Of a stretch of DNA of 64,000 nt, positions 3,774 to 48,790 are shown one piece after another (position 1 is the stretch's first letter; each line of letters starts with the position of its first letter). The DNA lies in contig NZ_VEFR01000002.1 in NCBI RefSeq assembly GCF_007679035.1, positions 349,245-413,244 of the forward strand, given 5' to 3'. The translations under genes and the position numbers were made by a program. The stretch is from Agrococcus jejuensis (GTDB lineage Bacteria > Actinomycetota > Actinomycetes > Actinomycetales > Microbacteriaceae). The notes beneath the pieces are model-generated. The model was not told the origin of the DNA. It searched no databases and saw only the letters and a program-made list of their open reading frames with translations.

Positions 3774-4430
3774 TCAGCGGAAGCGGTAGCCCATGCCGCG
3801 CACGGTCTCGATGCGGTCGGCGCCGAGCTTCGCCCGCAGGTAGCGCACGTACACGTCGACGACGTTCGAGCCGGGGTCGAAGTCGTAGCCCCAGACCCGC
3901 GAGAGCAGCTGCTCGCGCGAGAGCACGTTGCCGCGGTTGCGCATGAGCTCCTCGGCGAGGGCGAACTCGCGCGCCGACAGGTCGACCTCGCGCCCGTCGA
4001 GCCGCGCGCGACGCGTGCGCACGTCGAGCACGACGCCGTCGGCCTCCACCTCGCTCGGCGCCGCAGCGCCCTCGCGGCGCATGCGCAGGCGGATGCGCGC
4101 GAGCAGCTCGTCGAAGCGGAAGGGCTTGGGCACGTAGTCGTCGGCGCCGCCCTCGAGCCCCGCGACCGTGTCGGCGGCGGAGGTGCGGGCCGTGAGCATG
4201 ATGACGGGCACCGTCGCGCCCGAGCCGCGCAGCCGCTCGAGCACCTCGAAGCCGTCGAGCCCCGGCAGGCCGACGTCGAGCACGACGAGGTCGAACTCGT
4301 CGCTCAGCGCGAGGTCGAGCGCCTCGGGGCCGGTCGCGGCGACGGTCGTCGCGAAGCCCGCGGCGCGCAGCCCCTTCTCGACGAACGCGCTGATGCGCAC
4401 CTCGTCCTCGGCGATCAGGATCGACGGCAT
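3774..4430 (-). CDS. OmpR-family two-component response regulator
   Basis: The receiver domain is recognisable (ILIAEDEVRISAFVEKGL...DLVVLDVGLPGLDG) and so is the winged-helix output domain (LSAREFALAEELMRN...VDVYVRYLRAKL, MGYRF). The start is assigned at the ATG for MPSILIAEDE; the ORF-track N-terminal extension overlaps the kinase gene. Confidence 0.85.
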   Translation of the reverse strand: MPSILIAEDEVRISAFVEKGLRAAGFATTVAATGPEALDLALSDEFDLVVLDVGLPGLDGFEVLERLRGSGATVPVIMLTARTSAADTVAGLEGGADDYVPKPFRFDELLARIRLRMRREGAAAPSEVEADGVVLDVRTRRARLDGREVDLSAREFALAEELMRNRGNVLSREQLLSRVWGYDFDPGSNVVDVYVRYLRAKLGADRIETVRGMGYRFR

Positions 4431-4452
4431 CCGCTCCCCCTCGCGCTCGCGG

Positions 4453-5952
4453 TCACGCTCGACCATCCTCGCCGACGGCCGCTGCCGACGCGCCGGGCGC
4501 GGCCCCGGCGGCCGCGACCGCCTCGTCGTCGATCGGCAGCGCCACGACGAACGCGGCGCCGCCCTCGACGGCGTCGTCGACGCGTGCCGTGCCGCCGTGC
4601 GCCTCGGCGATCCGGCGCACGATCGACAGGCCCAGGCCGCTGCCCTCGCGCCCACGGCCGGTCTCGACGCGTCGGAATCGCTCGAACACGGCCTCCTTGT
4701 GCGCGTCGGGCACGCCGGGCCCCGCATCCTGCACGACGAGCTCGACGTGGTCGCCGGCGCGCCGCGACGCGACCGTGACGTCGCCGCCCGCGTGCGTCAC
4801 GGCGTTCTGCACGAGCTGCAGCATCGCCTGCGTGATGCGCTCGACGTCGACCATCGCGACGACGCGCGCCGTCGAGCCGAGCCGCACCGTCGCGCCCTCG
4901 ATGCCCGACGCCGTCGTCGCGACCTGCTCCGTGAGCTCGGCGACGTCGGTCGCGCGGAAGCGGAACGCCTCGACGCGGTCGACGCTCGACGCGCGTTGGA
5001 TGTCGCCGACGAGCCCCGCCATGCGGTCGAGCTCGGAGATCGCCACGTCGCGCGCCTGCTCGACGTCGGCCGGGTCGCGCGCATCCATGAGCTCGAGGTG
5101 GCCGCGCACGATCGTGACGGGCGTCTTCAGCTCGTGCCCGACGTCGTCGAGCAGGCGCTGCTGCGCGGCGAGGGATCCGTCGAGCCGGTCGAGCATGGCG
5201 TTGACGGTGACGCCGAGCTGCGAGACGTCGTCGTTGCCCGTCACGGGCACGCGCTCGGAGACGCCGGATGCGGCGATGCGCTCGGCGAGCTGCCGCAGGT
5301 CGCGGATGGGGCGCAGCAGCCGGCCGGCGATCGCGAAGCCGATCACGAGCACGGCGAGCACGCCGATGGCGGCCGCGAGCAGGAAGACGCTCGCCGCGGC
5401 GTCGAGCTCGGCGAGCTCGGCGACGAGGTCGTAGCCGGTGACGAAGATCGCGGTCGTCGCCGCGTCGCCCTCGCCCACGACGATCGGCACGGCCACGTAG
5501 CGCAGCGTGACGTCGGCGCGCGCGTCGGCGTCGGCGTCGGCGATCGTGCCGATCACGACCTGCGCGCCCTCCGTCTCGGCGGTGACGCGCGCCGCGAGCC
5601 CGTCGACGCGTGCAAGGTTCACGTCCATCTGCACGCCCGGCACGAGCGCCGCCTGGCCCGCGATGACGCCGAGCGCGCCGGTGTTGTCGTCGGGGGCGAT
5701 GCGGGTGAGCGCTGCCGTGAGCAGCGCCTCGGCGCTCGACCAGCCGCCGTCCGGCGACTCCGACGCGAGGAAGCGCACCGACTCGACCGACGACAGCAGC
5801 TGCGTGTCGACCTGGTCGAGGATGCGGTTGCGCTCGACGACGTAGGCCGTGACGCCGGCCGCGAGCACCGCGAGCGTCGCCACGAGCCCGAGGGCCGCCA
5901 CGATCCGCGTGCGCACGCTGACGACCGGCAGTCGACTCCGCCGCTCGCCCAT
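4453..5952 (-). CDS. Sensor histidine kinase
   Basis: It has an N-terminal transmembrane segment, then a HAMP-like region, an H-box (LLDDVGHELKTPVT) and a HATPase_c region (GSGLGLSIVRRIAEAHGG). It lies directly upstream of the response regulator on the same strand. Confidence 0.85.
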   Translation of the reverse strand: MGERRSRLPVVSVRTRIVAALGLVATLAVLAAGVTAYVVERNRILDQVDTQLLSSVESVRFLASESPDGGWSSAEALLTAALTRIAPDDNTGALGVIAGQAALVPGVQMDVNLARVDGLAARVTAETEGAQVVIGTIADADADARADVTLRYVAVPIVVGEGDAATTAIFVTGYDLVAELAELDAAASVFLLAAAIGVLAVLVIGFAIAGRLLRPIRDLRQLAERIAASGVSERVPVTGNDDVSQLGVTVNAMLDRLDGSLAAQQRLLDDVGHELKTPVTIVRGHLELMDARDPADVEQARDVAISELDRMAGLVGDIQRASSVDRVEAFRFRATDVAELTEQVATTASGIEGATVRLGSTARVVAMVDVERITQAMLQLVQNAVTHAGGDVTVASRRAGDHVELVVQDAGPGVPDAHKEAVFERFRRVETGRGREGSGLGLSIVRRIAEAHGGTARVDDAVEGGAAFVVALPIDDEAVAAAGAAPGASAAAVGEDGRA

Positions 5953-5991
5953 GCCCCCATCCTGCCCGCCCCGGCACCGTGCGGCCTGTCA

Positions 5992-6009
5992 CATGAGAGC
6001 AGTCTCATG
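5992..6009. promoter_or_regulatory. 18-bp palindrome CATGAGAgcagTCTCATG in the divergent region between the kinase/regulator operon and the phosphotransferase gene
   Basis: It is a perfect 7+7 inverted repeat, relatively AT-rich for this genome. A near-identical palindrome (CATGAGAGgtCTCTCATG) occurs at 7574-7591. Confidence 0.4.
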
Positions 6010-6052
6010 CAAGGCCAGCGATCGCCCAGCGGCGCCTGGAAGGATCGGGGGC

Positions 6053-7195
6053 ATGGAGTCGCGGCCCGCCGAGCACGTGCTGCTCGAGGAGGCGTTGGGC
6101 CGCCCCGGGCGCCTCATCTCCCGCGACCCGTTCGGCGCGGGCGTCATCGCCGGATTCGAGGTCGACGACGACGGCACGACGCTCACCTACTTCGTCGACA
6201 CCTCGGGCGAGGACGTGCCCGAGGAGACGGGGCTCGTGCTGCGCTCGGGCGACGCGCTGCAGGCGCGCGTCTGGCTGCATCCCGCCGATCCGCGCCTGCC
6301 GACGCTGCCCGTCGCCGCGTTCGGCGAGTCGGCGGCGCGACTGCTCGAGCGCTTCGGCATCGCAGGCACGTTCGAGTCGGAGATCGTCGCCTATCGACCG
6401 GGCAAGCGCGCGGTGCTGCGGCTGCGCGGCGAGGAGGCGGAGCACTTCCTGAAGATCGTGCCGCCCGGCGTCACCGAGCACATCGCGAGCCTGCACTCGG
6501 CGCTCGCGAAGGCTGGCGTGCCCGTGCCGCGCATCCCTCGCTGGGCGCCGCAGGGCTGCATGCTCATCGAGCAGGCGAAGGGGCTCGCGGGACCGAAGGC
6601 CGCTCTGTCGCTCGCGCCCGATGCGCTGCTGCAGGCGGTGGACGTCGTGCGGCTGGGGCTCGAGCGCGCCGAGATCACGGGTGCCGCCCGGCCGGCGCTC
6701 GGATCCCGCATCGACTGGTACGCCGCACGCCTCGCGCAGGTCTCGCCCGAGCGGGCGGGTCTCGCGATGGCGCTGCGCGACGCCGTGCACGCCCGCCGCC
6801 GCGACGTGACGCTGCCCGTCGTCGTGCACGGCGACCTGCACCTCGGCCAGCTCTTCTTCACCGACGACGTCGTGACGGGACTCATCGACGTCGACACCGC
6901 GGGCGTCGGCGACCGCGACGAGGACTCCGCCGCGTTCATCGGCCACGCCCGCACGAGCGCGCTGCTCACCGAGGCGGCAGGCCGGTCGGAGGCGGCGCTC
7001 GCCCTGCACGTGCTCGCCGACGTCGCATCCGAGCGCTGGCTCGACGGCCCGCACTCGCGCTCGCTCACGGCGGCGCACCTCATCGCGCACGCGCTGTCGG
7101 CGATCGAGCAGGGTGCGGGCGACCGCGCCGACCGGATGCTCGACGAGGCCTCGTCGCTCGTGCACGTGGCGCCGAAGGCGGCGAGCGCGGGCTGA
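6053..7195 (+). CDS. Phosphotransferase-family protein (aminoglycoside phosphotransferase / APH-like kinase fold)
   Basis: The catalytic-loop motif VVHGDLHLGQ is present, as is the metal-binding motif IDVDTAGVGD. The ATG at 6053 follows the palindromic site. Confidence 0.7.
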   Translation: MESRPAEHVLLEEALGRPGRLISRDPFGAGVIAGFEVDDDGTTLTYFVDTSGEDVPEETGLVLRSGDALQARVWLHPADPRLPTLPVAAFGESAARLLERFGIAGTFESEIVAYRPGKRAVLRLRGEEAEHFLKIVPPGVTEHIASLHSALAKAGVPVPRIPRWAPQGCMLIEQAKGLAGPKAALSLAPDALLQAVDVVRLGLERAEITGAARPALGSRIDWYAARLAQVSPERAGLAMALRDAVHARRRDVTLPVVVHGDLHLGQLFFTDDVVTGLIDVDTAGVGDRDEDSAAFIGHARTSALLTEAAGRSEAALALHVLADVASERWLDGPHSRSLTAAHLIAHALSAIEQGAGDRADRMLDEASSLVHVAPKAASAG

Positions 7196-7224
7196 GGCGC
7201 TGCGGCTCGGCTCGTGCCTGGCTA

Positions 7225-7565
7225 CGCGGTCGGTCGGTCGGCGATTGGTCACGATCGGCTCATGACTGGTCACGATCGGCGCCTGACTGGTCACGATTGG
7301 CCCATGACTGGTCAGAGTTGGCAGCCAGCTGCGACCAGTCGACGACCAACCATGACCAGTGCTCGACCGAGCCATCGGCGAGTGGTCCACTCGTCGCGGT
7401 GACTGGTCACTCGATCCGGCGATCGGTCACTCGTTGTGGCGACTGGTCACTCGTCGGGATCGACTGGTCACCGATCGTTCCCACGAGCGACCATTCCCGA
7501 CCACGAGCGACCAGTCAGCACCACGTGTGACCAGTCAGGCCCACGAGCGACCGATCGACCGCCCG
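7225..7565. repeat. Minisatellite-like array of about 15 units with a ~21-bp period and core (T)GACTGGTCA(C) or its complement GACCAGTC
   Basis: Examples: gattggtcacgatcggctca / tgactggtcacgatcggcgcc / tgactggtcacgattggccca / tgactggtcagagttggcagc ... The units switch to the complementary orientation (cgaccagtc) in the second half. No coherent protein is encoded; the six-frame peptides are 7-aa periodic. Confidence 0.7.
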
Positions 7566-7573
7566 CATCTGCG

Positions 7574-7591
7574 CATGAGAGGTCTCTCATG
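7574..7591. promoter_or_regulatory. 18-bp palindrome CATGAGAGgtCTCTCATG, about 77 bp upstream of the small secreted protein gene
   Basis: It is a perfect 8+8 inverted repeat and a second copy of the motif at 5992-6009. Confidence 0.4.
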
Positions 7592-7667
7592 CGGTCGTCA
7601 TACCCGCCTCACGGGGTCTCGCGAGAGTGGTGCTCGCACACAGGGAGCACCGAAGAAGGAGACCATC

Positions 7668-8108
7668 ATGGAGCAGCGCACCTGGATCACCGTCGGCGCA
7701 GCCGGCACCCTCGGCCTCGGCCTCGTCGCAGCCGGAGCCCTCGCCACCGCCAACGCCATGGACGTCGACGACGCGACGCAGGTCGCGCAGGGCGGCGTCG
7801 TGGTCGGCGACGACCTCGTCGAGCGGCCGGGCGTCACCATCCGCGTCACCGACGGGCACGCATCCGTCGTCTCGGCGCCCACCGCGTCGAGCGCCCCCGC
7901 AGCGCCGGCCCCCACGAGCTCGGCTCCGTCGGCGCCCACGGCCCCGGCACCCGCACCCACCCAGTCGGCGATCTCGGCGCCGTCGCCCGTCGCCGCCCCG
8001 GCTCCCGCCCCGGCCCCCGCCCCCGCCCCGGCGCCCGCTCCCGCATGGGACAGCGCGCCGTCGGCGGCCAGCCCCGTCTCGCCCGTCTCCGCCCCCTCGG
8101 GCGACTGA
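7668..8108 (+). CDS. Small secreted Ala/Pro-rich protein (hypothetical) with a (PA)n tract
   Basis: A strong Shine-Dalgarno (AAGGAGA) lies 7 nt upstream of the ATG. The signal peptide is MEQRTWITVGAAGTLGLGLVAAGALATANA, and the C-terminus includes PAPAPAPAPAPAPAPA. The nucleotide sequence there is a CCCCGC/CCCGGC microsatellite. Confidence 0.6.
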   Translation: MEQRTWITVGAAGTLGLGLVAAGALATANAMDVDDATQVAQGGVVVGDDLVERPGVTIRVTDGHASVVSAPTASSAPAAPAPTSSAPSAPTAPAPAPTQSAISAPSPVAAPAPAPAPAPAPAPAPAWDSAPSAASPVSPVSAPSGD

Positions 8109-8214
8109 CGAGGGCTGGAGGGGTCGGCGTCCGACCGTCGGACGTCGACCCCTCCGCACTCCCCCGGCGCCGCCGACGCATCCTGCGTCGACGGCGCCGC
8201 TGCGTGCGTCCGGA

Positions 8215-8600
8215 CGAGCTGACTGGTCACGCGTGGTTGGGAATGGTCGCTCGTTGCAACCACGAGTGACCAGTCGAAGGTGACGAGTGACCAGTCGGCG
8301 CAACGAGTGACCAGCCGGTGCCGCAGCGGTCAGCGGATGCGGCGCTGGTCGCTCGCCTCGCATGGAGGACGACTGGTCGCAGTTGCACCGGACTGGTCGC
8401 AGTTGCGGTGCACCTGCGACCAGTCGAGCGTGCATCTTCGACCAGCCTGGTGCAATCGTGACCAGTCATGCCGGCGTCGGCGCGCGCCTCGTCGTCGACT
8501 GGTCGCGAATGGCTGTCGACTGGTCGGACTTGGCAGCCAACTGCGACCAGTCACGAGTCGACTGCGACCCGTCACGAGCCACGTGCGACCGGTCGTGGAG
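8215..8600. repeat. Second ~21-bp-period array with the same GACTGGTC / GACCAGTC core, about 17 units
   Basis: Examples: tgaccagtcgaaggtgacgag / tgaccagtcggcgcaacgag / actggtcgcagttgcaccgg / actggtcgcagttgcggtgcac / gaccagtcgagcgtgcatcttc ... It flanks the small secreted gene on the other side. Confidence 0.7.
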
Positions 8601-13264: not shown

Positions 13265-16200
13265 TCAGCCCTCGCCGCGTCGGCGGCGCACGCCGAGCAC
13301 GAGGCCGGCGCCGATCGCGAGCATCGCGGCGAGCGCGAGCCAGCCGGCGACCGCGACGCCCGTGCGCGGCAGGTCGCTGCCCGCCTGGCCGCCCTCGGCG
13401 CCCGACTCCGGGCCGCCGTCGTCGGATCCCGGACCGCTCGGAGCGGGAGCGCTGGGCTCGGGCGTGCCCGGGTCGCTCGGTGCGGGCGTGCCGGGATCGC
13501 TGGGACCGGGCGTGCCCGGGTCGCTGGGTCCGGGCGTGCCGGGGTCCTGCGCGAACTCGATGACGATCTCGCCGGTCACGATCGTGCCGTCGGCCGCGAT
13601 GCCCGTCCAGCGCACCGGCGTCGGGTTGCGGGTGAAGCCGACCTCGGGGGTGAACGTGACGAGGCCGGTGGCGACGTCGACCTCCCACACGCCCTCGCCG
13701 GGCACGACGAGTCGCTGCACCTGCGCGCCGAACGCGTCGAGCAGACGCACCGAGTCGCGCTGCAGGGTCGGCGACACGGATCCCGGGTCGACCGTCACGG
13801 GGCTGCCCTCGGGAGCGCTCGCCGCGATGTCGGCGACGACCTCGGTCGAGCCGGCCGTGACCTGCGGGCGGTACGTCGCCGCGGCGGCGGTGCCGTTGGC
13901 GTCGAGGACGCGGTAGGCGACGCCCGCGCCGATGCCGACGAATCCGGCCTCGGGCGTGAACACGATGCGACCGTCGACGAGCGCGTAGGAGCCCTCGCCG
14001 GCCACGACCACGACGGCCGCCGGGGCGCCGACCGCGTCCAGCAGCGTGAGCGACTCGCGCACGAGCGGCACCCCCGGGTCGCCGGCGGCGTCGTTCGCGA
14101 GCGGATCGACCGACTGCGGTGCGCGCTGCACGCCGCTCGACGAGTCGTCGGCGGCGACGGGCGTCACGGCCGAGACCGTCGCACGCGCCGTGCCGGTCGC
14201 GGGGATGCCGTTGGCGTCGCTCACGCGGTAGCCGACCGCGGGCGTCGTGCCCACGAAGCCGGGCTCCGGGGTGAAGACGAGCACGGGCGCGTCGCCGCTG
14301 CGGTCGATCGTCCAGACGCCCTGGCCGTCGACGACGACGCGGTCGATGGGCTGACCGGCGTCGTCGAGCAGCTGCAGCGTCTGCGGGCGCAGCGGCACGT
14401 CGGGGTCGCCGGCCTCGTCGTTCGCGAGCACGTCGACGACGACGGGTGCGCCCTGGCGGCCCGTGCCGAGGTCGGGGCTCGCGATCGGCGCGACGGCGCC
14501 GATCGTCGCGCCGACCGTCGCGGTCGCCACGGTGCCGTTGGCGTCGGCGACGCGGTACGGCACGGGCGTGGCGTCGCCCGAGAACGTCGCAGCGGGCGTG
14601 AAGACCACGACGGGCGCGGCAGGCGTCGAGCGGTCGATCGTCCACACGCCCTGGCCGTCGACGACGAGGCGGTCGACGCCTGCACCGTCGGCATCCACGA
14701 GCTCGAGGGTCGCGGGTCGCAGCGGCACGCTCGGGTGACCGGCGGCGTCGTTCGCGAGCACGTCGATCGTCGCGGCGGCACCCTGGCGGGCGGCGCCGAC
14801 GTCGTCCGTCGCGACGGGCAGCACGGCCGTGATGGTCACGCCGAGGGACGCGGTCGCGCGCGTGCCGTTGACGTCGGCCACGACGTAGCCCACCGGCGTC
14901 GCGTCGCCCCGGAACGTCGGCAGCGGCGTGAACACCACGCGCGGAGCGGCGGGGTCGTCGCGGTCGATCGACCAGGTGCCCTCGTCCTCGACCTCGCGGG
15001 TCGCGACGGGCTCGCCCGCGGCGTCGAGCAGCATGAGCGACGCCGGGTCGAGCGCGACGGCGGGGTCGCCGGCACGGTCGTTCGCGAGCGGGTCGATCCG
15101 CACGGGCGAACCCTGCAGAGCAGCGCCGGCGTCGTCGGCCGCCACCGGCGTCACGGCCGTGACCTCGGCGATGACGATCGCGGCCGTCGTCCAGGTGCCG
15201 TTGGCGTCGGCGACGGCGTACTGCACCGAGGCGCTGCCCGTGAAGGTCGGGTCGGTCGCGAACACGATGCGCGGCGTCGCACCGGCGCGGTCGATCGACC
15301 ACGTGCCGACGCCGGGCACCGACACCTCGTCGACGCGGGCGCCGTTGGCGTCGAGCAGCGTGAGCGACGACGCGACGAGCGGCACCCCGGGTGCACCGGC
15401 GCGGTCGTTGTCGAGCGGCGAGACGGCGACGACGGCGCCCTGGCGGGCCTCGCCCTCGTCGTCGACGGCGATGGGCGTCACGGGCGTGACGCGCACGGCG
15501 ACCTCGGCCGTGGCCGTCGCACCGTTGGCGTCGGCGATCCGGTAGGACACGGGCGTCGCGTCGCCTGCGAACGTCGCGAGCGGCTCGAACACGAGCCTCG
15601 GGGCCGCCGCATCCGTGCGGTCGATGCGCCAGGTGCCCTGGTCGGCCACGTCGAGCGTCGTCACGGCGTCGCCGGCCGCGTCGAGCAGCGTGAGCGTCGA
15701 CGGGCGCAGCGCGATCGACGGGTGGCCCGCCTGATCGTTCGCGAGCACGAGGATCGTCGCCGAGCGCCCCTGCGTCGTCGTGGCCTCGTCGTCGGTCGCG
15801 ACGGGCGTCACGGCGGTCGAGGTCGGCGTGAAGGTCGCCTCCACGGCCGTGCCGTTGGCGTCGGCGACGCGGTAGGCGACGGGCGTCGCGGCGCCGGTGT
15901 GGTCGGCCTCGGGCGTGAAGACGATGCGGGGGCCGCCCATGGCGTCGCGGTCGATGGCGTAGCGGCCCTCGCCGGCGACGACGAGCACGTCGACGGGTGC
16001 GCCGGCGGCGGTCAGCAGCGTGAGCGTCGACGGCACGAGGGGCACCTCGGTGCGACCGGGCACGTCGTTCGCGAGCGGTGCGATCGAGACGGGCGCGCCC
16101 TGCAGGCCGGACGCGACGTCGTCGACCGCCACGGGGGCGACGGCGGCGACCGCGACGACGATCTCGGCGCGCGCGAGCGTGCCGTTCGCGTCGGCGACGC

Positions 16201-19200
16201 GGTACTCGACGGGGGCCGCGTCGCCGCGGAACCCCGCGGCGGGCGCGAACCGCACGACCGGCAGGTCGTCATCGCCGAGCTCGATCGTCCACGTGCCCTC
16301 GTCGAGCACGAAGATGCGGTCGGTCGGCTCGCCGTCGGCGTCGAGCAGCGTGAGCGTCGACGGCACGAGCGGCACGTCGGGGTGGCCGGCGGCGTCGTTC
16401 GCGAGCACGTCGACGGTCATCGGCGCGCCCTGGTAGGTCTGGCCGCGGTCGGCCTCGGCCGTGGGCGTGACGGCGACGATCGTCGCAGCGATCGACGAGC
16501 TCGTGCGCGTGCCGTTGGCGTCGCGCACCTCGTACTCGATCGTCGCGGTGCCGCTGTAGTCGGCCTCGGGGGCGAACGTGACGGTGGGGCCTCCGGCGCC
16601 GGCGCGGTCGATCGACCAGGTGCCGACACCCGGCACCACGACGCGTGCGATGGGCTCGCCGTCCGCGTCGAGCAGCAGGAGCGAGTCGGCGTCGAGCGGC
16701 ACCTCGTCGAGGCCCGCGACGTCGTTGGCGAGCGGCGAGACCGTGACGGGCGCGCCCTGGCGGGCGGTGCCTGCGTCGGCGACGGCGACGGGTGCGACGC
16801 CCGTGATCGTCGCGGCGAAGCCGGCCTCGACGGTCGTGCCGTTCTCGTCGGCGACGCGGTAGCGCACGGCGTCCGCGGTGCCCGTGAAGCCGGGCAGCGG
16901 CGTGAACACGATGCGCGGACCGCCCTCGGCGTCCAGCTCGAGCGCGTACGTGCCCGCATCCGCGATCGTCACGCTCGGCGCGTCCGCGCCGTCCGCGTCG
17001 AGCAGCGTGAGCGTCGAGGGCACGAGCGGCACGTCGGGGTGGCCGGCCGCGTCGTTCGCGAGCGGTGCGACGGATGCGCGCGCACCCTGTCGCGCGGCGG
17101 CCTCGTCGTCGTTGGCGACGGGCACGACGGGAGCGACGCGCACGCCGACGGTCGAGGCCGCCGTCGTGCTGTTCGCGTCGGCGACGCGGTACGCGACGGT
17201 CGTCGCGGGACCCGCGAAGCCGAGCTCGGGTGCGAAGCGCACGACGGGGGCGGCCTCGACGGTGCGGTCGACGGTCCACGTGCCCTCGCCCGTCACGACG
17301 AGCTCGTCGACGGCGGTCTCGCCGTCGAGCAGCGTCAGGGTCGACGGCACGAGGGGCACGTCGGGGTCGCCCGCGGCGTCGTTCGCGACGACGTCGATCG
17401 TCACGGGAGCGCCCTGGCGGGTGCCGGCGGAGTTGGGGTTCGCGACGGGCAGCACGGCGCCGATCGTGGCCGTCGCGGTCGACGTCGCGGGGGTGCCGTT
17501 GGCGTCGGCGACGCGGTAGGCGACGGTCGACTGGCCGACGAAGCCGGGCAGCGGCGCGAAGACGAGCACGGGGGCGTCGACGTCGGCGCGGTCGACGGTC
17601 CAGGTGCCCTGCCCCTCGATCTCGAGCTCGTCGACGGCGGTCTCGCCATCGAGCAGCGAGAGCGATGCGGGCGCGAGCGGCACGTCGGGGTGGCCGGCGA
17701 CGTCGTTCTCGATGGCGTCGATCGTCACCGAGGCGCCCTGGCGGGCAGCGCCGCCGTCGGGAGCGGCCGTCGGGGTCACGGCGTCGATCGTCACGTCGAC
17801 GACGGCGGATGCGTGCGTGCCGTTGTCGTCGGAGACGCGGTACGCGATGGGGCTGGCATCGCCCGTGAAGCCGGGCAGCGGTGCGAAGACGAGGTACGGG
17901 CCGCCCGCGGTGGTGCGGTCGATCGTCCACGTGCCCTCGTCGGCGACCTCGATGCGGTCCACGGGGGCGCCGTCGACGAGCAGCGTGAGCGTGGCGGGGT
18001 CGAGCGGCACCTCGTCGAGCCCGGCGACGTCGTTCGCGAGCACCGCGATCGACACGGGCGCGCCCTGGCGGCCGGTGGCGGCGTCGGGGTCGGCGACGGG
18101 GGTCACGGCGAGCGACGTCGGCGTGAACGTCGCGCTCGTGCGGGTGCCGTTGGCGTCGGCGACGCGGTAGGTCACCGGCGTCGCGGCGCCGACCCACGCG
18201 TCGAGCGGCGTGAAGACGATGCGGGGGCCGCCCTCGGCGTCGGCATCGATCTCGTAGGTGCCCTGGCCGTCGATCGCGACGGTCGCGGCCGGCTGGCCGT
18301 CGGCGCCGAGCAGCTCGAGCGTCTCGGGGTCGAGCGGCACGTCGTCGCGGCCCGCCGCATCGTTCGCGAGGGGTGCGACCGAGACGGGAGCGCCCTGGCG
18401 GGCGGAGGCGACGTCGGCGGTCGCGACGGGCGTCACGGCCTCGACGACCGCGGTGACGGTCGCGATCGCGACGGTGCCGTTGGCGTCGGCGACGCCGTAG
18501 CGCGCGGGCGTCGCGGTGCCCCGGAAGGACGGCTCCGGGGTGAACGCGATGCGCGGCATCGTGGCGTCGGCGACCACGGCGTACGTGCCCTGGCCCGCGA
18601 CGGTCACGGTCGCGACGGGGGTGCCGGCGTCGTCGACGAGCGTGAGCGTCGTCGGGTCGAGCGGCACGTCGTCGAGGCCGGCCGCGTCGTTCGCGAGCGG
18701 TGCGACGGATGCGGTGGCACCCTGGCGCGAGGTGGCGACGTCGGGCCGCGCGATCGGCGTGACCGCGTCGATGATCGCGGTCGCGGTCGAGGTCGCGACG
18801 GTGCCGTTGGCGTCGGAGACGCGGTACGACACGGTCGAGGTGCTCGCGAACGAGGGCAGCGGTGCGAAGACGAGCACGGGGGCGTCCTCGTCGTCGCGGT
18901 CGACGCGCCACGTGCCCTGGCCGGCGATCTCGACCTCGTCGGCGGCGGCGCCCTCGGCGTCGACGAGCGTGAGGGTCGAGGCGACGATCGGCACGGCGGG
19001 GTGGCCGGCGTCGTCGTTCGCGACCGCGTCGATCGTCACGGTGGCGCCCTGACGGGCCTCGCCCGCGTCGGCGACGGCGATGGGCGTGACGGCTGCGATC
19101 GTGGCGGTGACCTGCGCGGTCGCCGTCGTGCCGTTGGCGTCGGCGACGACGTACGTCACGGCGTCGGGCGTGCCGACGTAGGTCGCGACGGGCGTGAAGA

Positions 19201-22200
19201 CGATGCGCGGCGCCACGAGGTTGGCGCGGTCGATCGTCCAGGTGCCGACGCCGTCGACCTCGATGCTCGTGACGGGGGCGCCGTCGACGAGCAGGCGCAC
19301 GGATGCGGGGTCGAGCGCGACGTCGGGGTGGCCGGCGGCGTCGTTCGTGAGCACGGCGACCGAGGCTGCGGCGCCCTGGCGGGCGGTGGCGGCATCGTCG
19401 GTCGCGGTGGGCGTGACGGCGACGAGCGTGGCGGTCGCGGTCGACGTCGCGACGGTGCCGTTGGCGTCGGCGACGCGGTAGGCGACGGTCGACGAGCCCG
19501 CGTACGTGGGCAGCGGCGTGAAGACGAGCACGGGCGCGCTCTCGGTGCGGCGGTCGACGGTCCAGGCTCCCTGGCCGTCGATCACGAGCTCGTCGACCGC
19601 AGCCTCGCCGTCGAGCAGCATGAGCGTCGGGCGGGCGAGCGGCACGTCGGCGGCGCCGGCGCGGTCGTTCGCGAGCGCGTCGATCGTGACCGTCGTGCCC
19701 TGGTGGGCCTCGCCGACGTCCGGCGTCGCGACGGGCGTGACGGCACCGATCGTCGGGGTGACGGTCGCGGTCGTTGTCGTGCCGTTGGCGTCGGCGACGC
19801 GATAGGTCACGGGCGCGGCCGTGCCGACGAACGACGGTGCGGGGGTGAACTCGACGCGCGGAGCCGCGGCCGTCGAGGCGTCGATGGCGTACGTGCCACC
19901 GACGACGCGCACGGTCGTCGCCGGTGCGCCGGTGCCGTCGAGCAGCGTGAGCGTCGAGGGCACGAGACGCACGTCGGGGTGGCCGGCGCGGTCGTTGGCG
20001 AGCACGGCGACGGAGGCCGGGGCGCCCTGTCGTGCGGAGGCGACGTCGGGGTTGGCGGTGGGCGTCACGGCGTCGATCGTCGCGGCGACGGCTGCCGTGG
20101 CCCGGGTGCCGTTGGCGTCGGCGATCGAGTAGTCGACGGGCGTGGCCTCGCCGACGAAGCCGGGCAGCGGCGTGAACACGACCCGCGGGGCGGATGCGGT
20201 GGCGCGGTCGATCGTCCAGGTGCCCTGGCCGTCGACGACGAGCTCGGTGACGAGCGCGCTGCCCGCGCCGACGAGGCGCAGGGAGGCGGGGTCGAGGGGC
20301 ACGGCCCGGTCGCCGGCGACGTCGTTGGCGAGCACGGGCAGCGACACGGGCGCGCCCTGGCGTGCCGAGCCCTCGTCGGCGTTGGCGACCGGCGTGACGG
20401 CCGTCAGCGTCGGCGTGAACGTCGCGGTCGTCGCCGTGCCGTTGGCGTCGGCGACGCGGTACGCGACGCCGGTCGCGGTGCCGACGAAGGCGGGCAGCGG
20501 CGTGAAGGCGATGCGGGGGCCGCCGGCGGCGGCGCGGTCGAGCGCGTACGTGCCCTGGTCCGCGACGACGAGCACGTCGACGGCGGTCGTGCCGTCGAGC
20601 AGCGTGATCGAGCCGGGCTCGAGCGCGACGGCGGCGTCGCCGGGCACGTCGTTCGCGAGCGGTGCGACGGCGACGGTCGAGCCCTGTCGGCCGGTCGCGG
20701 CGTCGTCGGCGGCGATGGGCGTCACGGCCGTGAGGGTCGCGGCGTACGTCGCGCTCGTCGTGGTGCCGTTGGCGTCGGCGACGCGGTAGGCCACGGCGTC
20801 GGCGGTGCCGACGTACGTCGTCTCGGGCGTGAAGACGATGCGGGGTCCGCCCTCCCCTCCGCGCTCGATGGCGTAGGTGCCCTGCCCGGGCACGCGCAGC
20901 GAGTCGACGGCAGCCGTGCCGTCGAGCAGCGTGAGCGTGTCGGCGTCGAGCTGCACGTCGGCGTGGCCGGGGATGTCGTTGCGCAGCGGCTCGACGGCGA
21001 CGGCTGCGCCCTGGCGACCCGTGGCGGCGTCGTCGATCGCCACGGGCGTCACGGCCGTGAGGGTCGGCGTCGCGGTCGACGTCGTGCGCGTGCCGTTGGC
21101 GTCGGCGACCGAGTAGGTGACGGACGCGGCGGTGCCGACGAAGGTCGCGTCGGGCGTGAAGACGACGCGCGGCGCGGCGGCGTTCGTCGCGTCGATCGCG
21201 TAGGAGCCTCCGGTGACCGCGACGGTCGTCGCGGGGGCGCCCTGGGCGTCGAGCAGCTGGAGCGTGCCGGGTCGCAGCGCGACGGCGGGGTCGCCGGCGA
21301 GATCGTTGGCGAGCACCGCCATCGAGACCCGCGCACCCTGGCGCGCGGTGCCGGCGTCGGGGTTGGCGACGGGCCGCACGGCCGAGAGGGTCGGGCGGAA
21401 GGTCGCGGTCGTCGTCGTGCCGTTGGCGTCGGCGACGCGGTAGGTCACGACGGTGGCGTTGCCGGTGAAGGTCGACACGGGCGTGAACACGATGCGCGGG
21501 CCGCCCTGGGCGCCGCGGTCGAGCGCGTACGTGCCCTGGCCGGCGACGACGACCTCGTCGACGACGGTCGTGCCGTCGAGCAGCGAGAGGGTCGCGGGGT
21601 CGAGCGGCACGTCGGGGTGGCCGGCGTCGTCGTTGTCCAGCGGAGCGACCGATGCGACGGCGCCCTGGCGCGCGGTGGCGAAGTCGTCGTCGGCGCTCGG
21701 CGTGACGGGGGCGATGGTCGCGGTGATGGTCGTGGTGGCGACCGTGCCGTTCTGGTCGCGCACCTCGTAGTCGATCGAGGCGTCGCCCGTGAATCCGCGC
21801 TCGGGCGCGAAGGTCACGGTGGGCGCGGCGGGGTCGGTGCGATCGACGGTCCAGCGGCCGACGCCGGCGACGACGAGCTCGGCGACGGGCTGACCGTCGT
21901 CGTCGAGCAGCGTGAACGACTCGGGGTCGAGCGGCACGTCGTCGATGCCGGGCGCGTCGTTCTCGAGGGGCGCGACCGTGACCGATGCGCCCTGGCGCGC
22001 TGCGCCGCCGTCGCGGGCGGCGACGGGCTGCACGCCCGAGATCGTGGGCGTGAAGCGCGCGGTCGTCGTGGTGCCGTTGGCGTCGGCGACGCGGTAGCGC
22101 ACGGGATCGGCGGGGCCGACGAACGATGCGAGCGGCGTGAAGACGATCGTGGGCACGCCGGCGACCTGCTCGATGCGGTACGAGCCTGCGGCGACGTCGA

Positions 22201-25200
22201 CGATCGTCGCGGGCTGGTCGTTCGCGTCGAGCAGCTCGAGCGTCTCGGGGTCGAGCGGCACGTCCGGGTGTCCGGCGGCGTCGTTCGCGAGCGGCGCGAC
22301 GGATGCCTCAGCACCCTGACGCGCGGCGGCCTGGTCGTCGGCGGCGACGGGCGTGACCGCCTCGAGCATCGCGGTGGCGCGCGCGGTCGTGACGGTGCCG
22401 TTGGCGTCGGCGACGGCGTAGGTCACGCGCGAGGTCGCACCGCCGAACGACGGCAGCGGGGTGAAGACGAGCACCGGCGCGGCGGCGACGGACCGGTCGA
22501 CGCGCCACGTGCCGCGATCCTGGACCACGAGCTCGTCGACGTCGTTGCCGGCGCCGTCCCGCAGCGTGAGCGTGGACTGCACGAGCGGCACGTCGGGGTG
22601 GCCGGCCTGGTCGTTGGCGACGGCGTCGATGCGCACGGGAAGGCCCTGGCGCTCCGACTGGCGGTCGTTCGTCGCCACGGGCACGACGGACGTGATCGTC
22701 GGCGTGAACGTCGACGAGGTGCGCGTGCCGTTGGCGTCGGCGACCGAGTAGGTCACGGGTGCGGCCTCGCCGGTGAACGATGCGGCAGGCGAGAAGACGA
22801 TGCGCGGCGCGGTCTCGGATGCCTCGATCGCGTAGCGGCCGCCGTCGACGTCGACGGTCGTCGCCGGCTGGCCCGCGGTGTCGAGCAGCACGAGCGTCGA
22901 GGGCACGAGCGGCACGTCGGCGAGGCCCGGGCGATCGTTCGCGAGCGGCGCGACGGATGCGGGCGCACCCTGGCGCGCGGCGGCGACGTCGGGCGTCGCG
23001 GTGGGCGTGACCGCCGTGATGGTCGCGGTCGCGACCGAGGTCGCAGCGGTGCCGTTGGCGTCGAGCACGCGGTAGGCGACCGGCTCGGTGGTGCCGACGA
23101 AGGAGGGCTGCGGCGTGAAGACGAGCACGGGCGCCTCGGCGGTGGTGCGGTCGACGCGCCATGCACCGACGACGGTGACGACCTCGTCGGTCGCCGCTCC
23201 GGCGCCGTCGAGCAGCGCGAGCGTCGCGGGTGCGAGCGGCACGTCGGCGTGGCCGGCGAGGTCGTTCGCGACGGCGTCGATGCGCACCGGGGCGCCCTGG
23301 CGCGCGGAGGCCCAGTCGGCCTGGGCCGTCGGGGTCACGGCGTCGATCGTCGGGGTGACGGTCGCGGTCGTCGTCGTGCCGTTGGCGTCGGCGACGCGGT
23401 ACGTCACGGGGGTCGCCTGCCCCGTGAACGACGGGATGGGCGTGAACTCGACGCGGGGGGCAGCGGCGTCGGCGCGCGTGATGGCGTAGGTGCCCTGGCC
23501 GTCGATCGTCACCGTCGCCGCGGGCTGGCCGTCGGCGCCGAGCAGCTCGAGCGTCGTGGGGCGCAGCGGCACGTCGGGGTGGCCGCTCGCGTCGTTCGCG
23601 AGCACGGCGACGGATGCGGGAGCGCCCTGACGGCCGGCGGCGACGTCGTCGGCGGCGAGCGGCGTGACCGCCGTGATCGTCGCGACGGCGGTCGAGGCGG
23701 CCTGGGTGCCGTTGGCGTCGAGCACCCGGTACGGGGCCGCGGTCGTGAGACCCGAGAAGCCGGGCAGCGGCGCGAAGACGAGCTCGGGGCCGCCGTCGGC
23801 GTCGAGGTCGACCGTCCAGGTGCCCTCGTCGGCGACGACGAGCTCGGTGACGGGCGTCGCGCCCGAGAGCAGGCGCAGCGTGGCGGGCTGGAGCGGCACG
23901 TCGGGGTCGCCGGCCTCGTCGTTGGCGAGCGCGTCGATGCGCACGGTCTCGCCCTGGCGGCCGTCGCCGGCGTCGGGGGCCGCGGTGGGCGTGACGGCCG
24001 TGAGGATGGCGCGGGCGGTGGCGTCGGCGGGCGTGCCGTTGTCGTCGCGCACGCGGTAGTCGACGGCGGCGGTGCCGACGAAGCCGGCGAGCGGCGTGAA
24101 GACGAGGCTCGCGGTGGCGCGGTCGATGGTCCAGGTGCCCTGGCCGTCGACGACGATCTCCGACACCTCGGCGTCGCCGTCGAGCAGCACGAGCGACGCG
24201 TCGTCGAGCGGCACGTCGGCGTCGCCGGGCTCGTCGTTCGCGAGCGCGTCGATCACGACGGTGGCGCCCTGGCGGGCCGTGCCCTCGTCGTCGATGGCGA
24301 CGGGCGTCACGGCGCCGATCGTGGCGATGGCGGTCGAGGTGGCCTGCGTGCCGTTCTCGTCGAGCACGCGGTAGGCGACGGCAGCCGTCGCGCCGGTGAA
24401 GGTCGCGAGGGGCGTGAAGACGAGCACGGGCTCGGCGCCGTCGCGGTCGACCGTCCAGGTGCCCTCGTTCGGCACGACGATCTCGTCGACGGGGGCGCCG
24501 TCGGCGAGCAGCGCGAGGGACGTGGGCCGCAGCGGCACGTCGGCGTCGCCGGCCTCGTCGTTGGCGAGGGCGTCGATCGTCGCGGGCGCGCCCTGTCGGG
24601 CGGAGCCGGCGTCGGGTCGCGCGATCGGCGTGACGGCGCCGATCGTCGGCGTGAATCGGGCGGTGGCGGTCGTGCCGTTGGCGTCGGCGACGCGGTAGGT
24701 CACGGGCGCGGCCTCGCCGGCGAAGGCGGCGTCGGGCGTGAAGACGATGCGCGGCTGCGCGCCGTCGACGATCGCGTACGAGCCGCCGGCGACCGTCACG
24801 GTCTCGGCGGGGGCGCCGTTCGCGTCGAGCAGCTCGAGCGTGTCGGCGACGAGGGGCACGTCGGCGTCGCCTGCGAGGTCGTTGGCGAGCGGTGCGACGG
24901 ATGCGGGCGCGCCCTGGCGCGCGCTGGCGACGTCGTCGACGGCGACGGGCGTCACGGCGCCGATCGTCACGGTGACGACCGCGGTCGTCGTGGTGCCGTT
25001 CGCGTCGGCGACGCGGTAGGTCACGGCGGTCGGCGTGCCCACGTACGAGGCGAGGGGCGTGAACACGACGCGCGGCGCCGACGCCGTGCGGGTGTCGAGC
25101 GCGTATGTGCCCGCGCCGTCGACGCGCACGGAGGTCGCGGGCTGCCCTGCCGCGTCGAGCAGCGTCACGGAGCCGGGTGCGAGCGGCACGTCGGGGTGGC

Positions 25201-28200
25201 CGGCGACGTCGTTGGCGAGCACGGCGACGGATGCGGCAGCACCCTGGCGCGCGCTGGCGACGTCGTCGACGGCGTCGGGCACGACGGCCTCGATCGTGGG
25301 GGTGACGGTCGCGGTCGTGGTGGTGCCGTTGGCGTCGGCGACGCGGTAGGTCACGGCGGTCGCGGTGCCCGCGAAGCTCGGGATCGGCGTGAAGACCACG
25401 CGCGGAGCAGCTGCGTCGGCGCGGGTGATCGCGTACGTGCCCTGGCCGGCGACGACGACCTCGGTCGTCTCGGCGCCCGTGCCGTCGAGCAGGCGCAACG
25501 TGTCGGGGCGCAGCGGCACGGCGGCGTCGCCGGCGGCGTCGTTCGCGAGCACGGCGACGGATGCCGCGGCACCCTGGCGCGCCGACGCCGTGTCGTTCGC
25601 GGCGACGGGCGTCACGGCCGTGATGGTCGGCGTGAAGGTCGAGGTCGCCGTCGTGCCGTTGGCGTCGGCGACGCGGTAGGTCGCGGGCGTCGCGGTGCCG
25701 GTGAAGGCGGGCGCCGGTGCGAAGACGAGCACGGGGCTCGCGGCGACGCTGCGGTCGACGCGGTAGCTGCCCTGACCGGGCACGAGCAGCAGGTCGACGG
25801 CGGCGTCGTTCGCGCCGACGAGCGTGAGCGACGAGCGCACGAGGGCGACGTCGACGTGGCCGCGAGCGTCGTTGGCGACGGCGTCGACCCGGACCTCGGC
25901 GCCCTGGCGCGCGGAGCCCGCGTCGGGGTTGGCGACGGGGGTCACGGCGGCGACGGTGATGCGGATGCTCGCGGTCGCGGTGGTGCCGTTGGCGTCGGCG
26001 ACGCGGTAGGGCACGGGGGTCGCGACGCCCGTGAAGCCGGGCAGCGGCGTGAAGGTCACGATGGCGCGGCCGTTGGCGGCGAACGAGAGCGCGTAGGTGC
26101 CCTGGCCCGAGATGGTGCGCTCGGCGGTCGCCTGGCCCGTGGGCGTGAGCAGCGTCACCGACGAGTCGACGAGCGGCACGGCGGGGTCGCCGGCGGCGTC
26201 GTTGCCGATGGGCACGACGGCGACCGCGCCTCCCTGGCGCGTGGTGGCCGAGTCGTCGGTCGCGGTCGGCGTGACGGGCGTGATCGTGGACGTCACGGTG
26301 GCGTCGGCGGTCGTGCCGTTGGCGTCGGCGATGCGGTAGCGCTGCGCCGTGGCCTCGCCCGTGAACGCAGGCAGGGGCGTGAAGACGATGCGCGGCGCGC
26401 TCGCCGTCGACCGGTCGATCGTCCAGGTCCCCTGGGTCGCGACCGTGATCGTCGTCGCGAGCTGCCCGTTGCCGTCGACGAGGCGCAGCGACGCGGGGTC
26501 GAGCGGCACGCCGGCGTCGCCGGCGGCGTCGTTGGCGAGCACGGCGACGGATGCGGGGGCACCCTGGCGCGCCGACGTCGTGTCGTTCGCCGCGGTCGGC
26601 GTCACGGGCGTGATCGTCGGCGTGATCGTGGAGGTCGCGACGGTGCCGTTCGCGTCGGCGACGCGGTAGGTCGCCGCGTTCGCCTGGCCGGTGAACGCGG
26701 GCAGCGGCGTGAAGCGCACGACGGGCATCGACGGCGTCGAGCGGTCGACGCGGTAGGTGCCCTGGCCCGCGACGACCACCTCGTCGACGGAGGCGCCGTT
26801 CGCGCCGACGAGCGCGAGCGTCGTGGGCTGGAGCGGGCGGCGCGCGTCGCCGGCGGCGTCGTTGCCGAGCGGTGCGACGGCCACGGCGGCCCCCTGGCGC
26901 GCGGTGCCGGCGTCGGGGTTGGCGACGGGCGTCACGGCCGTGAGCGTGGGCGTGTAGGCGGCGGTCGTCGTCGTGCCGTTCGCGTCGGCGACGCGGTACG
27001 AGACGGGCGTCGCGGAGCCGACGAACGTCGGCTCGGGCGTGAAGACGATGCGCGGGCTCGACGGCGTCGAGCGGTCGACCGTGTACGTGCCCTGGCCCGC
27101 GACGACGACCTGGTCGGTCGCCTGGCCGCCCGAGAGCAGCGTGAGCGTGCCCGGGGTGAGCGGCACGGCGGCGTTGCCGGCCTGGTCGTTGGCCAGCGGT
27201 GCGACCGACAGCGCGATGCCCTGCGCGCCGGTGGCGGCGTCGTTCGCGGCGACGGGCGTCACGCGCACGAACGTGGGCGTGAACGTGGTCGTCGCGGCGG
27301 TGCCGTTGGCGTCGGCGACGCGGTACGAGACGGATGCGGGCGTGCCGATGAAGGTGCGGTCGGGCGTGAACGTGATGGTCGTGCCGCTCAGCGCGTAGGT
27401 GCCGCCGGTGACGGCGAGCGAGGTGACGGCCTGGCCGGAGCCGTTCAGCAGCGTGAGGGTCGACGGCGCGAGCGGCACGTTCGGGTTGCCCGGTGCGTCG
27501 TTGGCGAGCGGCTGCGTCGACTGCGCGACGCCCTGCGGACCCGTGGTGGTGTCCGGCTGCAGCGCGGGGTTCACCGCCGTGACGGTCACGGCGAGCGTCG
27601 TGCGGCGGTGGTTGCCCTGTCCGTCCTCGACGTCGTAGGTGACGGGCGTCGCGGCGCCGCGGAAGGCGGCGAGGGGCGTGAAGACGACCTGGCCGTTCTG
27701 CACGGCGTACGTGCCCTGGCCCGAGACCGTGATGGAGCTGGCGAGCTGACCGGTCGAGGGGTCGACGAGGCGCAGCGTCGCGGGCACGACGTCGGTCGCG
27801 TCGTTCGCGAGCACGGCCACGGTCTGCGCGAGGCCCTGCGCGCCGGTCGACGCGTCGGGGCTCACGCCCGTCTGCACCGTCGCGGTCCACGTCGCGGTCG
27901 TCGTCGTGCCGTTGGCGTCGGCGACGCGGTACGGTGCCGCGGTGGCCACGCCCGTGAAGCCGGGCAGCGGCTGGAAGGTCAGCTGGCCGTCGACGACGCG
28001 CCAGGTGCCCTGGGATCCGACGGTGAGCGCGGTGACGGCGGTGGTGCCCGAGAGCAGCGTGAGCGTGGAGCGCACGAGCGGCACGGCGGCGTTGCCGGCC
28101 TGGTCGTTCGCGAGCGGGTCGATGCGCTGCAGCGCACCCTGCGCGCCCTGCGACACGTCGTTCGCGGCGGTGGGCGTCACGGCGGTCGTCGTCGCCGTGT

Positions 28201-48099: not shown

Positions 48100-48790
48100 T
48101 CCGCTGGGATCGTGGTGCTCCGGCCTCCCCGTCAGCTGGTCGAGAGCCGTCCTTCCCTTGCCGCCCTCCGTCCGGGGACGCCCTCCTTCCAGCTGGTCGA
48201 GGAGGCCCCGAGCGCAGCGAGGAGCCGTCTCGAGACCACGCGACGTGCCCGCTCGGCGCGACCACGCGCGTGGCCGGGCAGGAGCAGCGCTCCCGTGGTC
48301 TCGTGACGCGGGCTCGCCCAGGGGCTCGCGCGCTCCTCGACCAGCTGGATGGGGGCCGCCCGGCCCGCCCGCCCCTTGCCGCCCTCCGTCCGGGGACGCC
48401 CTCCTCCCAGCTGGTCGAGGAGGCCCCGAGCGCAGCGAGGAGCCGTCACGAGACCACGCGACGTGCCCGCTCGACGCGACCACGCTCATGCTGGTGGGGA
48501 GCCGCCCGGCCCGCCCGCCCCTTGCCGCCCTCCCTCCGGGGACGCCCTCCTCCCCGCTGGTCGAGGAGCGCAGGCGCGAAGCGCCTCCGCGTCACGAGAC
48601 CACGCGACGTGCCCGCCCGAGGCGACCACGCGCGTGGCCGGGCAGGAGCCGCGCTCGCGTGGTCTCGTGACGCGTGCTCGCCCAGGGGCTCGCGCGCTCC
48701 TCGACCAGCTGGTGGGGAGCCGAACGGCCCGTGAGGTACGAACGCAGAGCCTCGAACGGCCCCCTCAGGACACGCGAGCCCCCACCACCG
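48100..48790. repeat. Tandem block of composite GC-rich palindromic repeats, about 3 copies of a ~210-bp A+B unit
   Basis: The unit has two parts. Part A is CAGCTGGTGGGGAGCCGCCCGGCCCGCCCGCCCCTTGCCGCCCTCCGTCCGGGGACGCCCTCCTCC. Part B is CAGCTGGTCGAGGAGGCCCCGAGCGCAGCGAGGAGCCGTCACGAGACCACGCGACGTGCCCGC...CGCGTGGTCTCGTGACGCG.GCTCGCCCAGGGGCTCGCGCGCTCCTCGAC. CGTCACGAGACCACGCG and CGCGTGGTCTCGTGACG are exact reverse complements. Confidence 0.7.

Follow-up and report, generated by a model that had tools for sequence, protein, structure and literature searches.

Two near-identical palindromes stand close together in a 64,000-nucleotide stretch of the Agrococcus jejuensis genome (contig NZ_VEFR01000002.1; hereafter the window), one between a two-component operon and a divergent gene for an APH-like kinase, the other upstream of a gene for a small secreted protein. 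The question that this locus raises is which protein reads the two sites and with what effect on the genes around them. We put at roughly 0.75 the probability that both palindromes, here called boxes 1 and 2, are core operators of the response regulator (RR) encoded beside box 1, which would activate from them a local regulon of three transcription units. A first-pass annotation had proposed that a single dimeric regulator, probably the RR, governs all three units, and sequence comparison now lends this proposal support through the rarity of the motif, its conservation, its co-occurrence with the two-component system and precedent in the nearest regulator subfamily. The parts of the argument differ in strength. 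That the boxes are functional cis-regulatory elements we hold to be nearly certain, that the adjacent RR binds them is highly probable and that it does so as an activator is rather likely.

Two rare palindromes upstream of three transcription units

The boxes and the genes that they would serve are as follows.

5992-6009, unstranded: box 1, putative palindromic operator core CATGAGAGCAGTCTCATG, at the centre of the 100-bp divergent region between the histidine kinase (HK) and APH-like genes
7574-7591, unstranded: box 2, putative operator, a perfect 8-2-8 palindrome CATGAGAGGTCTCTCATG, upstream of the small secreted-protein gene
4453-5952, minus strand: sensor HK of 499 aa with HAMP, HisKA and HATPase domains, predicted to be autoregulated from box 1
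3774-4466, minus strand: OmpR-family RR with Response_reg and Trans_reg_C domains, candidate binder of the boxes
6053-7195, plus strand: APH-family gene (antibiotic-kinase fold) of 380 aa (PF01636, E = 1.3e-9), predicted target of box 1
7668-8108, plus strand: small secreted protein gene of 146 aa with a signal peptide, predicted target of box 2

Both inverted repeats described by the first-pass annotation were recovered at 5992-6009 and 7574-7591, and our gene calls agree that the first lies inside the divergent region of the HK/RR operon and the APH-like gene. The earlier description gave their spacing as two or four nucleotides; the inverted repeats are real, but one geometry fits both, either 7-4-7 or 8-2-8 with the inner pair mismatched in box 1, and the family consensus is SATGAGAG-NN-CTCTCATS. 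The pattern CATGAGA-N4-TCTCATG occurs in the window exactly twice, as boxes 1 and 2. No further copy was found in the 64 kb with up to three mismatches, and a weight matrix scored the boxes at 25.4 and 29.8 bits, respectively, with the runner-up position at 5.5 bits, which bears out the earlier statement that there is no third copy. None of 100 dinucleotide-preserving shuffles of the window contained an exact match. The palindromes are also AT-richer than their surroundings, as had been noted before (50% G+C in the boxes against 73.6% in the window). Box 1 is separated from the start codons of the HK and APH-like genes by 39 and 43 nt, respectively. Box 2 lies upstream of the small gene, as the annotation had it, at a distance of 76 nt rather than about 77, the ATG being at 7668 and not 7669; it is 379 nt beyond the APH stop codon.

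The box is conserved across Actinobacteria and accompanies the two-component system

For comparison we assembled 73 genome loci (808 kb), retrieved with a profile of the APH-like protein, which span Microbacteriaceae, Micrococcaceae, Propionibacteriales, Pseudonocardia, Acidimicrobiia and Nitriliruptoria. Most of them have an HK-then-RR pair adjacent to the APH-like gene, and outside the closest Agrococcus relatives RR identity across the loci is 55-77%. The motif is not randomly frequent: beside the two window sites, the 808 kb hold 17, 34 and 61 sites at 0, 1 and 2 mismatches to the consensus, as against 0, 0-2 and 0-4 sites per run in composition-matched simulations. These sites fall 5' of the HK gene, in the HK-APH gap, or at or just past the APH stop codon and 5' of a small signal-peptide gene.

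Conservation in orthologous intergenic regions, which the first-pass annotation had suggested checking, was seen in several actinobacterial classes and at fixed distances from start codons. Between HK and APH genes the usual distance of the box is 39-45 nt to the HK start and 34-45 nt to that of the APH gene, and in 28 promoters the box stands 44-127 nt upstream of the equivalent of the small gene. Measured from box end to start codon, the median is 45 nt for HK and 44 nt for APH genes, and five small genes lie at exactly 44 nt. Across the phylum the protein encoded downstream of the box is of the same small, secreted, Ser/Pro/Ala-rich kind. That two short palindromes, present in only two copies, merely resemble each other by chance and have no function is a reading that the absence of exact matches in shuffled windows and the phylum-wide conservation at fixed positions reduce to a negligible likelihood; the comparative data already refute it.

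With the strict pattern the box was found in 32 of the 44 loci that carry the two-component system, a figure that underestimates conservation because Microbacterium has a TAAGAG arm (TAAGAGA-NN-TCTCATC). We therefore replaced the strict pattern by a symmetrised weight matrix, which placed sites at the expected positions in all twelve loci missed before. At a threshold of at least 14 bits the matrix found the box in 43 of the 44 loci that have the two-component system and in 1 of the 13 that lack it; of 101 sites, only 3 were intragenic. The box accompanies the HK operon even where no APH gene is adjacent (for example in loci L043, L054, L055, L056 and L065). The A. citreus group has a box variant of its own, GTGAGAGAAGCCTCAC. 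In three loci of the A. citreus / A. sediminis group (L003, L019 and L059) two APH-like paralogues flank the two-component system; the GTGAGAGAAGCCTCAC box stands at the HK-divergent APH copy, and a canonical box stands between that copy and the small gene. Extra boxes also occur 3' of the RR gene in L033 (position 3413, 5' of a gene for a 1045-aa protein) and L026 (position 3305, 5' of a gene for a 153-aa lipoprotein-like protein), and these may be lineage-specific additions to the regulon.

A scan of metagenomes with the exact 16 specified bases of the box returned 120 contigs, of which 43 carried the module within 3 kb. Another 16 were of low G+C and are probable chance hits. The other 61 include many short fragments, in which the box precedes a small signal-peptide protein or the N-terminus of an HK or RR by 30-120 bp.

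The Agrococcus versicolor locus (L001) separates the box from the gene that precedes it. Here the cassette of box and small gene (7340-7890) is inverted relative to the window (7574-8108), to locus L002 and to the outgroups, and the box is still 83 nt upstream of the small gene despite the inversion. Since the box has moved with the small gene, box 2 belongs to that gene and not to the 3' end of the APH-like gene.

Sequence rather than pairing is kept in the boxes

A palindrome may also act in RNA, either at the 3' end of the APH mRNA, which it would terminate or stabilise, or as an element of a 5' untranslated region. Both boxes do fold into hairpins of 7-9 bp, and box 2 shares bases with the APH stop codon, or comes immediately after it, in most taxa. 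The pattern of variation tells against this. The TGAGA/TCTCA core is invariant in 63 instances, while changes in the arms are one-sided and break pairs: at pair 4-15 we counted eight A-C combinations and no A-T. An invariant core with independent, non-compensating arm changes fits a DNA operator and not an RNA hairpin. Moreover, no T-run after the stem and no terminator-like site was found, and Rfam returned no family match, with only far sub-threshold microRNA-like matches on the repeat arrays described below; two of three local contexts folded no better than shuffles. Box 1 is upstream of both of its divergent genes, and box 2 is detached from the APH 3' end in A. versicolor and lies well past the APH stop in the window. 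We therefore rejected a structured RNA element or intrinsic terminator, which we consider very unlikely.

Phased half-sites extend the box towards the promoter

On the side of the regulated gene the palindrome is followed by two extra copies of its right half-site in 11-bp phasing, which in the window are accompanied by a putative -10 element.

7597-7601, plus strand: extra half-site 1, GTCAT, 11 bp past the right half-site of box 2
7608-7612, plus strand: extra half-site 2, CTCAC, 22 bp past the right half-site of box 2, overlapping the would-be -35 position
7623-7628, plus strand: putative -10 element of the small-gene promoter, GAGAGT, 31 nt past box 2, assigned by eye

We oriented 44 small-gene and APH promoters towards the gene and scanned the 40 nt that follow the box. 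Of these, 17 have TCA or TTA at box offset 25 and 31 have it at offset 36, and other offsets almost never carry it; the box's own TCA is at offset 14, so that TCA/TTA recurs at 14, 25 and 36. In Microbacterium the last half-site reads CTTAG and so matches the CTCTTA arm of its box. Three Agrococcus small-gene promoters, those of the window, of A. versicolor (GACAGT) and of L002 (GATGGT), have GAnnGT exactly 31 nt past the box, with the last half-site ending 10 nt before it (the -10 being again assigned by eye).

These distances bear on the start of transcription. A box-to-start spacing of 44 nt is the sum of 31 nt, the 6 nt of a -10 hexamer and 7 nt, and is therefore the value expected for leaderless genes; from it we infer that the HK gene, the APH-like gene and the five small genes at 44 nt would be leaderless. 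The box would then lie at about -62 to -45, with the phased half-sites at the -35 position, an arrangement that suggests activator geometry.

The adjacent response regulator as the candidate binder

The adjacent RR is the obvious candidate for binding the boxes given the co-occurrence of system and box, the lack of any other conserved regulator, the 11-bp phasing, a nearly invariant recognition helix and the covariation of a helix residue with a box variant. In detail, the locus maps contained no other conserved regulator gene; the recognition helix SNVVDVYVRYLR is nearly invariant across 43 RR orthologues; and the substitution V203A goes with the TAAGA arm variant (13 of 14, as opposed to 0 of 27), which is weak evidence, the variant being essentially one clade.

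The boxes might nonetheless be genuine operators of a different transcription factor encoded elsewhere, with the two-component system just one of its targets. The link between RR and box rests on comparing sequences, palindromic sites are commoner among one-component regulators than in the OmpR family, and the 64-kb window has other genes that lay outside the regulator check. Such a factor would, however, have to account for a box that is present in nearly all loci with the system and almost none without it, and that follows the HK operon where the APH gene is not adjacent, in loci whose maps conserve no second regulator. It would also leave aside that the 11-bp-phased half-sites are an OmpR/PhoB signature, that the nearest subfamily uses such inverted repeats and that the helix change tracks the box variant. 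We judge this alternative improbable, if the least so of those considered here.

Activation, repression and the points against

If the adjacent RR is the binder, its phosphorylated form would bind the 16-18-bp inverted repeat ATGAGA-N4-TCTCAT as a dimer, and further protomers would fill the two half-sites, 11 bp apart, reaching the -35 position at the small-gene promoter and, in most lineages, at the APH promoter. Bound at roughly -62 to -45 from the transcription start, the RR would activate transcription. Because box 1 is central in the 100-bp divergent region, the HK/RR operon and the APH-like gene would both be under its control, with positive autoregulation of the former, and box 2 would drive the small secreted protein from a separate promoter. 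The regulon seems to be a local one made up of these three transcription units.

The same RR could instead repress in the main, or act in opposite ways at different promoters. Here a single palindrome is shared by two divergent promoters that are 100 bp apart; CopR, CusR and CzcR are documented examples of a common site with opposite outcomes (PMC11195947); and on the HK side in Microbacterium the box is about 26 nt from a -10-like element, as against 31 nt at other promoters, a difference that could change the outcome. On the other hand, the box lies upstream of the inferred -10/-35 region and not over the -10 element or the start, the phased half-sites would fall on the -35 position, as they do in promoters activated in the manner of PhoB, and AgrR and CusR are activators with positive autoregulation. 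Repression or mixed action is, in our estimate, about as improbable as binding by another factor, and slightly more so.

Several points weigh against an activating RR at these boxes. The Fisher probability for the co-occurrence of box and two-component system (2e-10) takes no account of phylogeny, and the loci lacking the system may be ones with paralogous APH genes. For most regulators of the OmpR family the binding site is a direct repeat. The best NCBIfam match of the RR, cztR_silR_copR, scores 209.3 bits and that of the HK, cztS_silS_copS, 163.4 bits, both below the respective cut-offs of 279.2 and 292.55, so that these heavy-metal subfamilies provide an analogy to relatives and not a proven family membership. 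The -10 elements were assigned by eye, and a scan for E. coli-type consensus sigma-70 promoters found nothing; such a scan is uninformative because the genome is 74% G+C. In the window the APH side of box 1 is without the canonical extra half-sites; at 6015-6031 it has CCAGCG-N5-CCAGCG, in the 11-bp-phased positions where other lineages have CTCAC, which may be a diverged auxiliary site or a coincidence. No clear extra half-sites were found on the HK side of the box. Finally, the choice of activation over repression is drawn from position only.

Likeness to heavy-metal and PhoB-type operators

E. coli CusR binds AAAATGACAAnnTTGTCATTTT between the divergent cusRS and cusCFBA, and a second box lies at the plasmid gene pcoE, which encodes a small periplasmic protein (PMC11195947). 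The box described here is likewise a 7-2-7 inverted repeat with outer bases ATGA...TCAT, is placed between a divergent two-component operon and a target, and has a second copy at a separate small-protein gene; the candidate regulator is again of the OmpR family, with an apparently restricted local regulon, and the CusR subfamily is its best NCBIfam match. The E. coli and Pseudomonas CusR regulons are themselves very restricted (PMC11195947). Unlike its E. coli counterpart, the box has the inner half-site GAG/CTC instead of CAA/TTG, the regulator and kinase fall below the subfamily cut-offs, the gene order is HK then RR, and instead of metal efflux or metal-binding genes the box has an APH-like kinase and a secreted protein rich in Ser, Pro and Ala as its predicted targets. 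In Pseudomonas, CusR activates both divergent operons from the site ATTCATnnATGTAAT (PMC11195947), and here too one palindrome in a divergent intergenic region, comparable to the ATTCATnnATGTAAT site of CusR, CopR and CzcR, is predicted to serve both operons, including the regulator's own. In Pseudomonas the three paralogous regulators share this site with different outcomes, CopR for instance activating cusRS and blocking pcoA2 (PMC11195947), whereas we saw no sign of cross-regulation at our loci.

AgrR of Cupriavidus metallidurans recognises ATTACA-N4-TGTAAT, a 6-4-6 inverted repeat, together with in-phase direct repeats; it is a type II activator with positive autoregulation that controls small periplasmic proteins (prsQ), and in the divergent region where it binds, its footprints extend from about -74 to -40 and from about -60 to -26 (PMC7380067). 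CopR and PcoR bind inverted repeats within 16 bp (PMC7380067). Our box shares with that of AgrR the 6-4-6 reading of the inverted repeat, the extra phased repeats and the setting in a divergent region. It differs in half-site sequence and phylum, the AgrR signal being silver, and its extra repeats are on the promoter-proximal side only, with strict 11-bp spacing. The heavy-metal-type operator geometry, as ATGAGA-N4-TCTCAT or ATGAGAG-NN-CTCTCAT, is thus present in 63 instances, with a half-site (TGAGAG) that is not the TGACAA or ATTACA of known heavy-metal boxes. By analogy, then, the box would work like a CusR/AgrR-type operator.

In PhoB promoters, half-sites in 11-bp phase lie where a -35 element would be, some 10 nt before the -10 element. 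The recurrence of TCA/TTA every 11 bp in one orientation resembles the pho box and other OmpR-type operators; in contrast to the pho box, the core here is an inverted repeat and the direct repeats are auxiliary.

Differences in half-site, subfamily scores, gene order and targets led us not to file the system as a metal-sensing CusRS. Two transmembrane segments of the HK flank a sensor domain of about 150 aa, in which 44 orthologues showed no invariant His/Cys/Met pattern of the kind that ligates metals, and the idea of a metal-sensing kinase was rejected on this ground. The locus maps held no conserved metal genes. Database labels of the RR orthologues are generic or an automatic CusR, and none gives a specific name.

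We also considered mycobacterial PrrAB. The best match of the RR among sequences of the PDB is Mycobacterium tuberculosis PrrA (1ys6; 178 bits, E = 2e-51), likewise an actinobacterial OmpR-family regulator. Syntenic RR orthologues from other genera, with 74-79% identity, reach 340-360 bits, about twice as much, so that PrrA looks like a paralogue. In M. tuberculosis prrA precedes prrB, the opposite of the HK-then-RR order here, and on score and order together orthology with PrrAB was rejected. No PrrA motif of this kind came up in a literature search by box sequence, a search that was not directed at motifs in the PrrA literature itself.

Target genes and surrounding repeats

The RR gene is immediately 3' of the HK gene, and its start may be the ATG at 4430, since orthologues are 218-220 aa long. 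For the APH-like protein the nearest solved structure is that of capreomycin phosphotransferase (E = 1e-7), and on such scores it is no more than a distant relative of antibiotic kinases. Its identity is 87% to the A. versicolor and 81% to the Agrococcus sp. SGAir0287 protein. The motif HGDLHLGQ had raised the idea of a maltokinase, which was dropped when the match proved negligible (E = 0.0066, with no significant stretch).

In the small protein an AxA cleavage motif (ATANA/MD) is followed by an Ala/Pro/Ser/Val-rich low-complexity tail, and searches of Pfam and NCBIfam gave no match. Its gene has a strong Shine-Dalgarno sequence, AAGAAGGAG, at 7653-7661. Between this and the putative -10 element lies a hairpin, GGTGCTCGCACACAGGGAGCACC, at 7628-7650, within a segment (7565-7670) that folds better than shuffles (z = -2.8); the hairpin could be an element of the 5' untranslated region. 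A second small secreted low-complexity protein near the box locus is suggested by an open reading frame at 2366-2677, whose product would start with a sequence resembling a signal peptide, be rich in Pro and Ala in its middle part and end in a poly-Asp tail, for which (GAC)16 at 2627-2674 codes.

Arrays of 20-21-bp units with the core GACTGGTC occupy 7243-7560 and 8208-8600 of the window, on either side of the box and small-gene cassette. The fuller core, often TGACTGGTCA, is nearly palindromic. Two to four direct units are followed by two to four inverted ones, giving five long imperfect hairpins, and the left array has the opposite orientation to the right one, with 95-nt arms that are 84% complementary. 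They contain 19 of the 21 exact GACTGGTC cores of the window. At L002, 4 + 4 units surround the same small-gene cassette; A. versicolor has no array at this locus and one at 12017-12200 of L001, between convergent genes. Among the fetched loci none was found outside this Agrococcus clade, and the arrays look like a clade-specific dispersed intergenic repeat of the repetitive extragenic palindromic (REP) or bacterial interspersed mosaic element (BIME) type. Their absence from the A. versicolor locus and outside the clade, and their insertion between the APH stop codon and box 2, made us reject the arrays as part of the regulatory device. The repeats flanking the small gene, which the first-pass annotation had mentioned, are on this evidence a clade-specific insertion. 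In the window and L002 the inverted arrays stand exactly at the two breakpoints of the cassette inversion; recombination between arrays would fit as its cause, but A. versicolor keeps no array remnants there.

Two further repeats lie elsewhere in the window. A tandem repeat with a period of about 330 bp (about 40 copies, 67% match) extends from 14021 to 27333 and presumably belongs to a gene for a giant repetitive surface protein with repeats of about 110 aa. A 146-bp tandem duplication (two copies, 87% match) at 48344-48631, in an intergenic-looking region, was checked for membership of the GACTGGTC family and is unrelated to it.

What the operator model would mean

Searches of the literature by box sequence and for a named system found no report of either. 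The boxes supply a testable operator and regulon for a widespread, so far uncharacterised actinobacterial two-component system. A more tentative suggestion, on balance doubtful, is that the locus represents an unrecognised module across Actinobacteria, in which a CusR-like system is joined to an enzyme of antibiotic-kinase fold and a secreted, disordered, Ala/Pro/Ser-rich protein and has nothing to do with metal homeostasis. If this were so, the module might serve in envelope or xenobiotic sensing, with the RR inducing a cytoplasmic kinase that modifies an incoming compound and the secreted partner feeding back on the sensor. The composite operator, with one inverted half-site and three phased direct half-sites, would then join the head-to-head sites of CusR type to the tandem sites of PhoB type.

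The promoters in question are divergent and probably leaderless, and no principle is overturned by them. The combination of an inverted repeat, phased direct repeats, strict spacing and an inverted cassette would nevertheless make this locus a clean case for the use of inverted repeats by OmpR-family regulators. Annotations of these proteins as copper resistance regulators could be corrected, as the target genes give them no support, and the operator model would permit targets to be predicted in one step in any genome and reporter strains to be designed for finding the signal.

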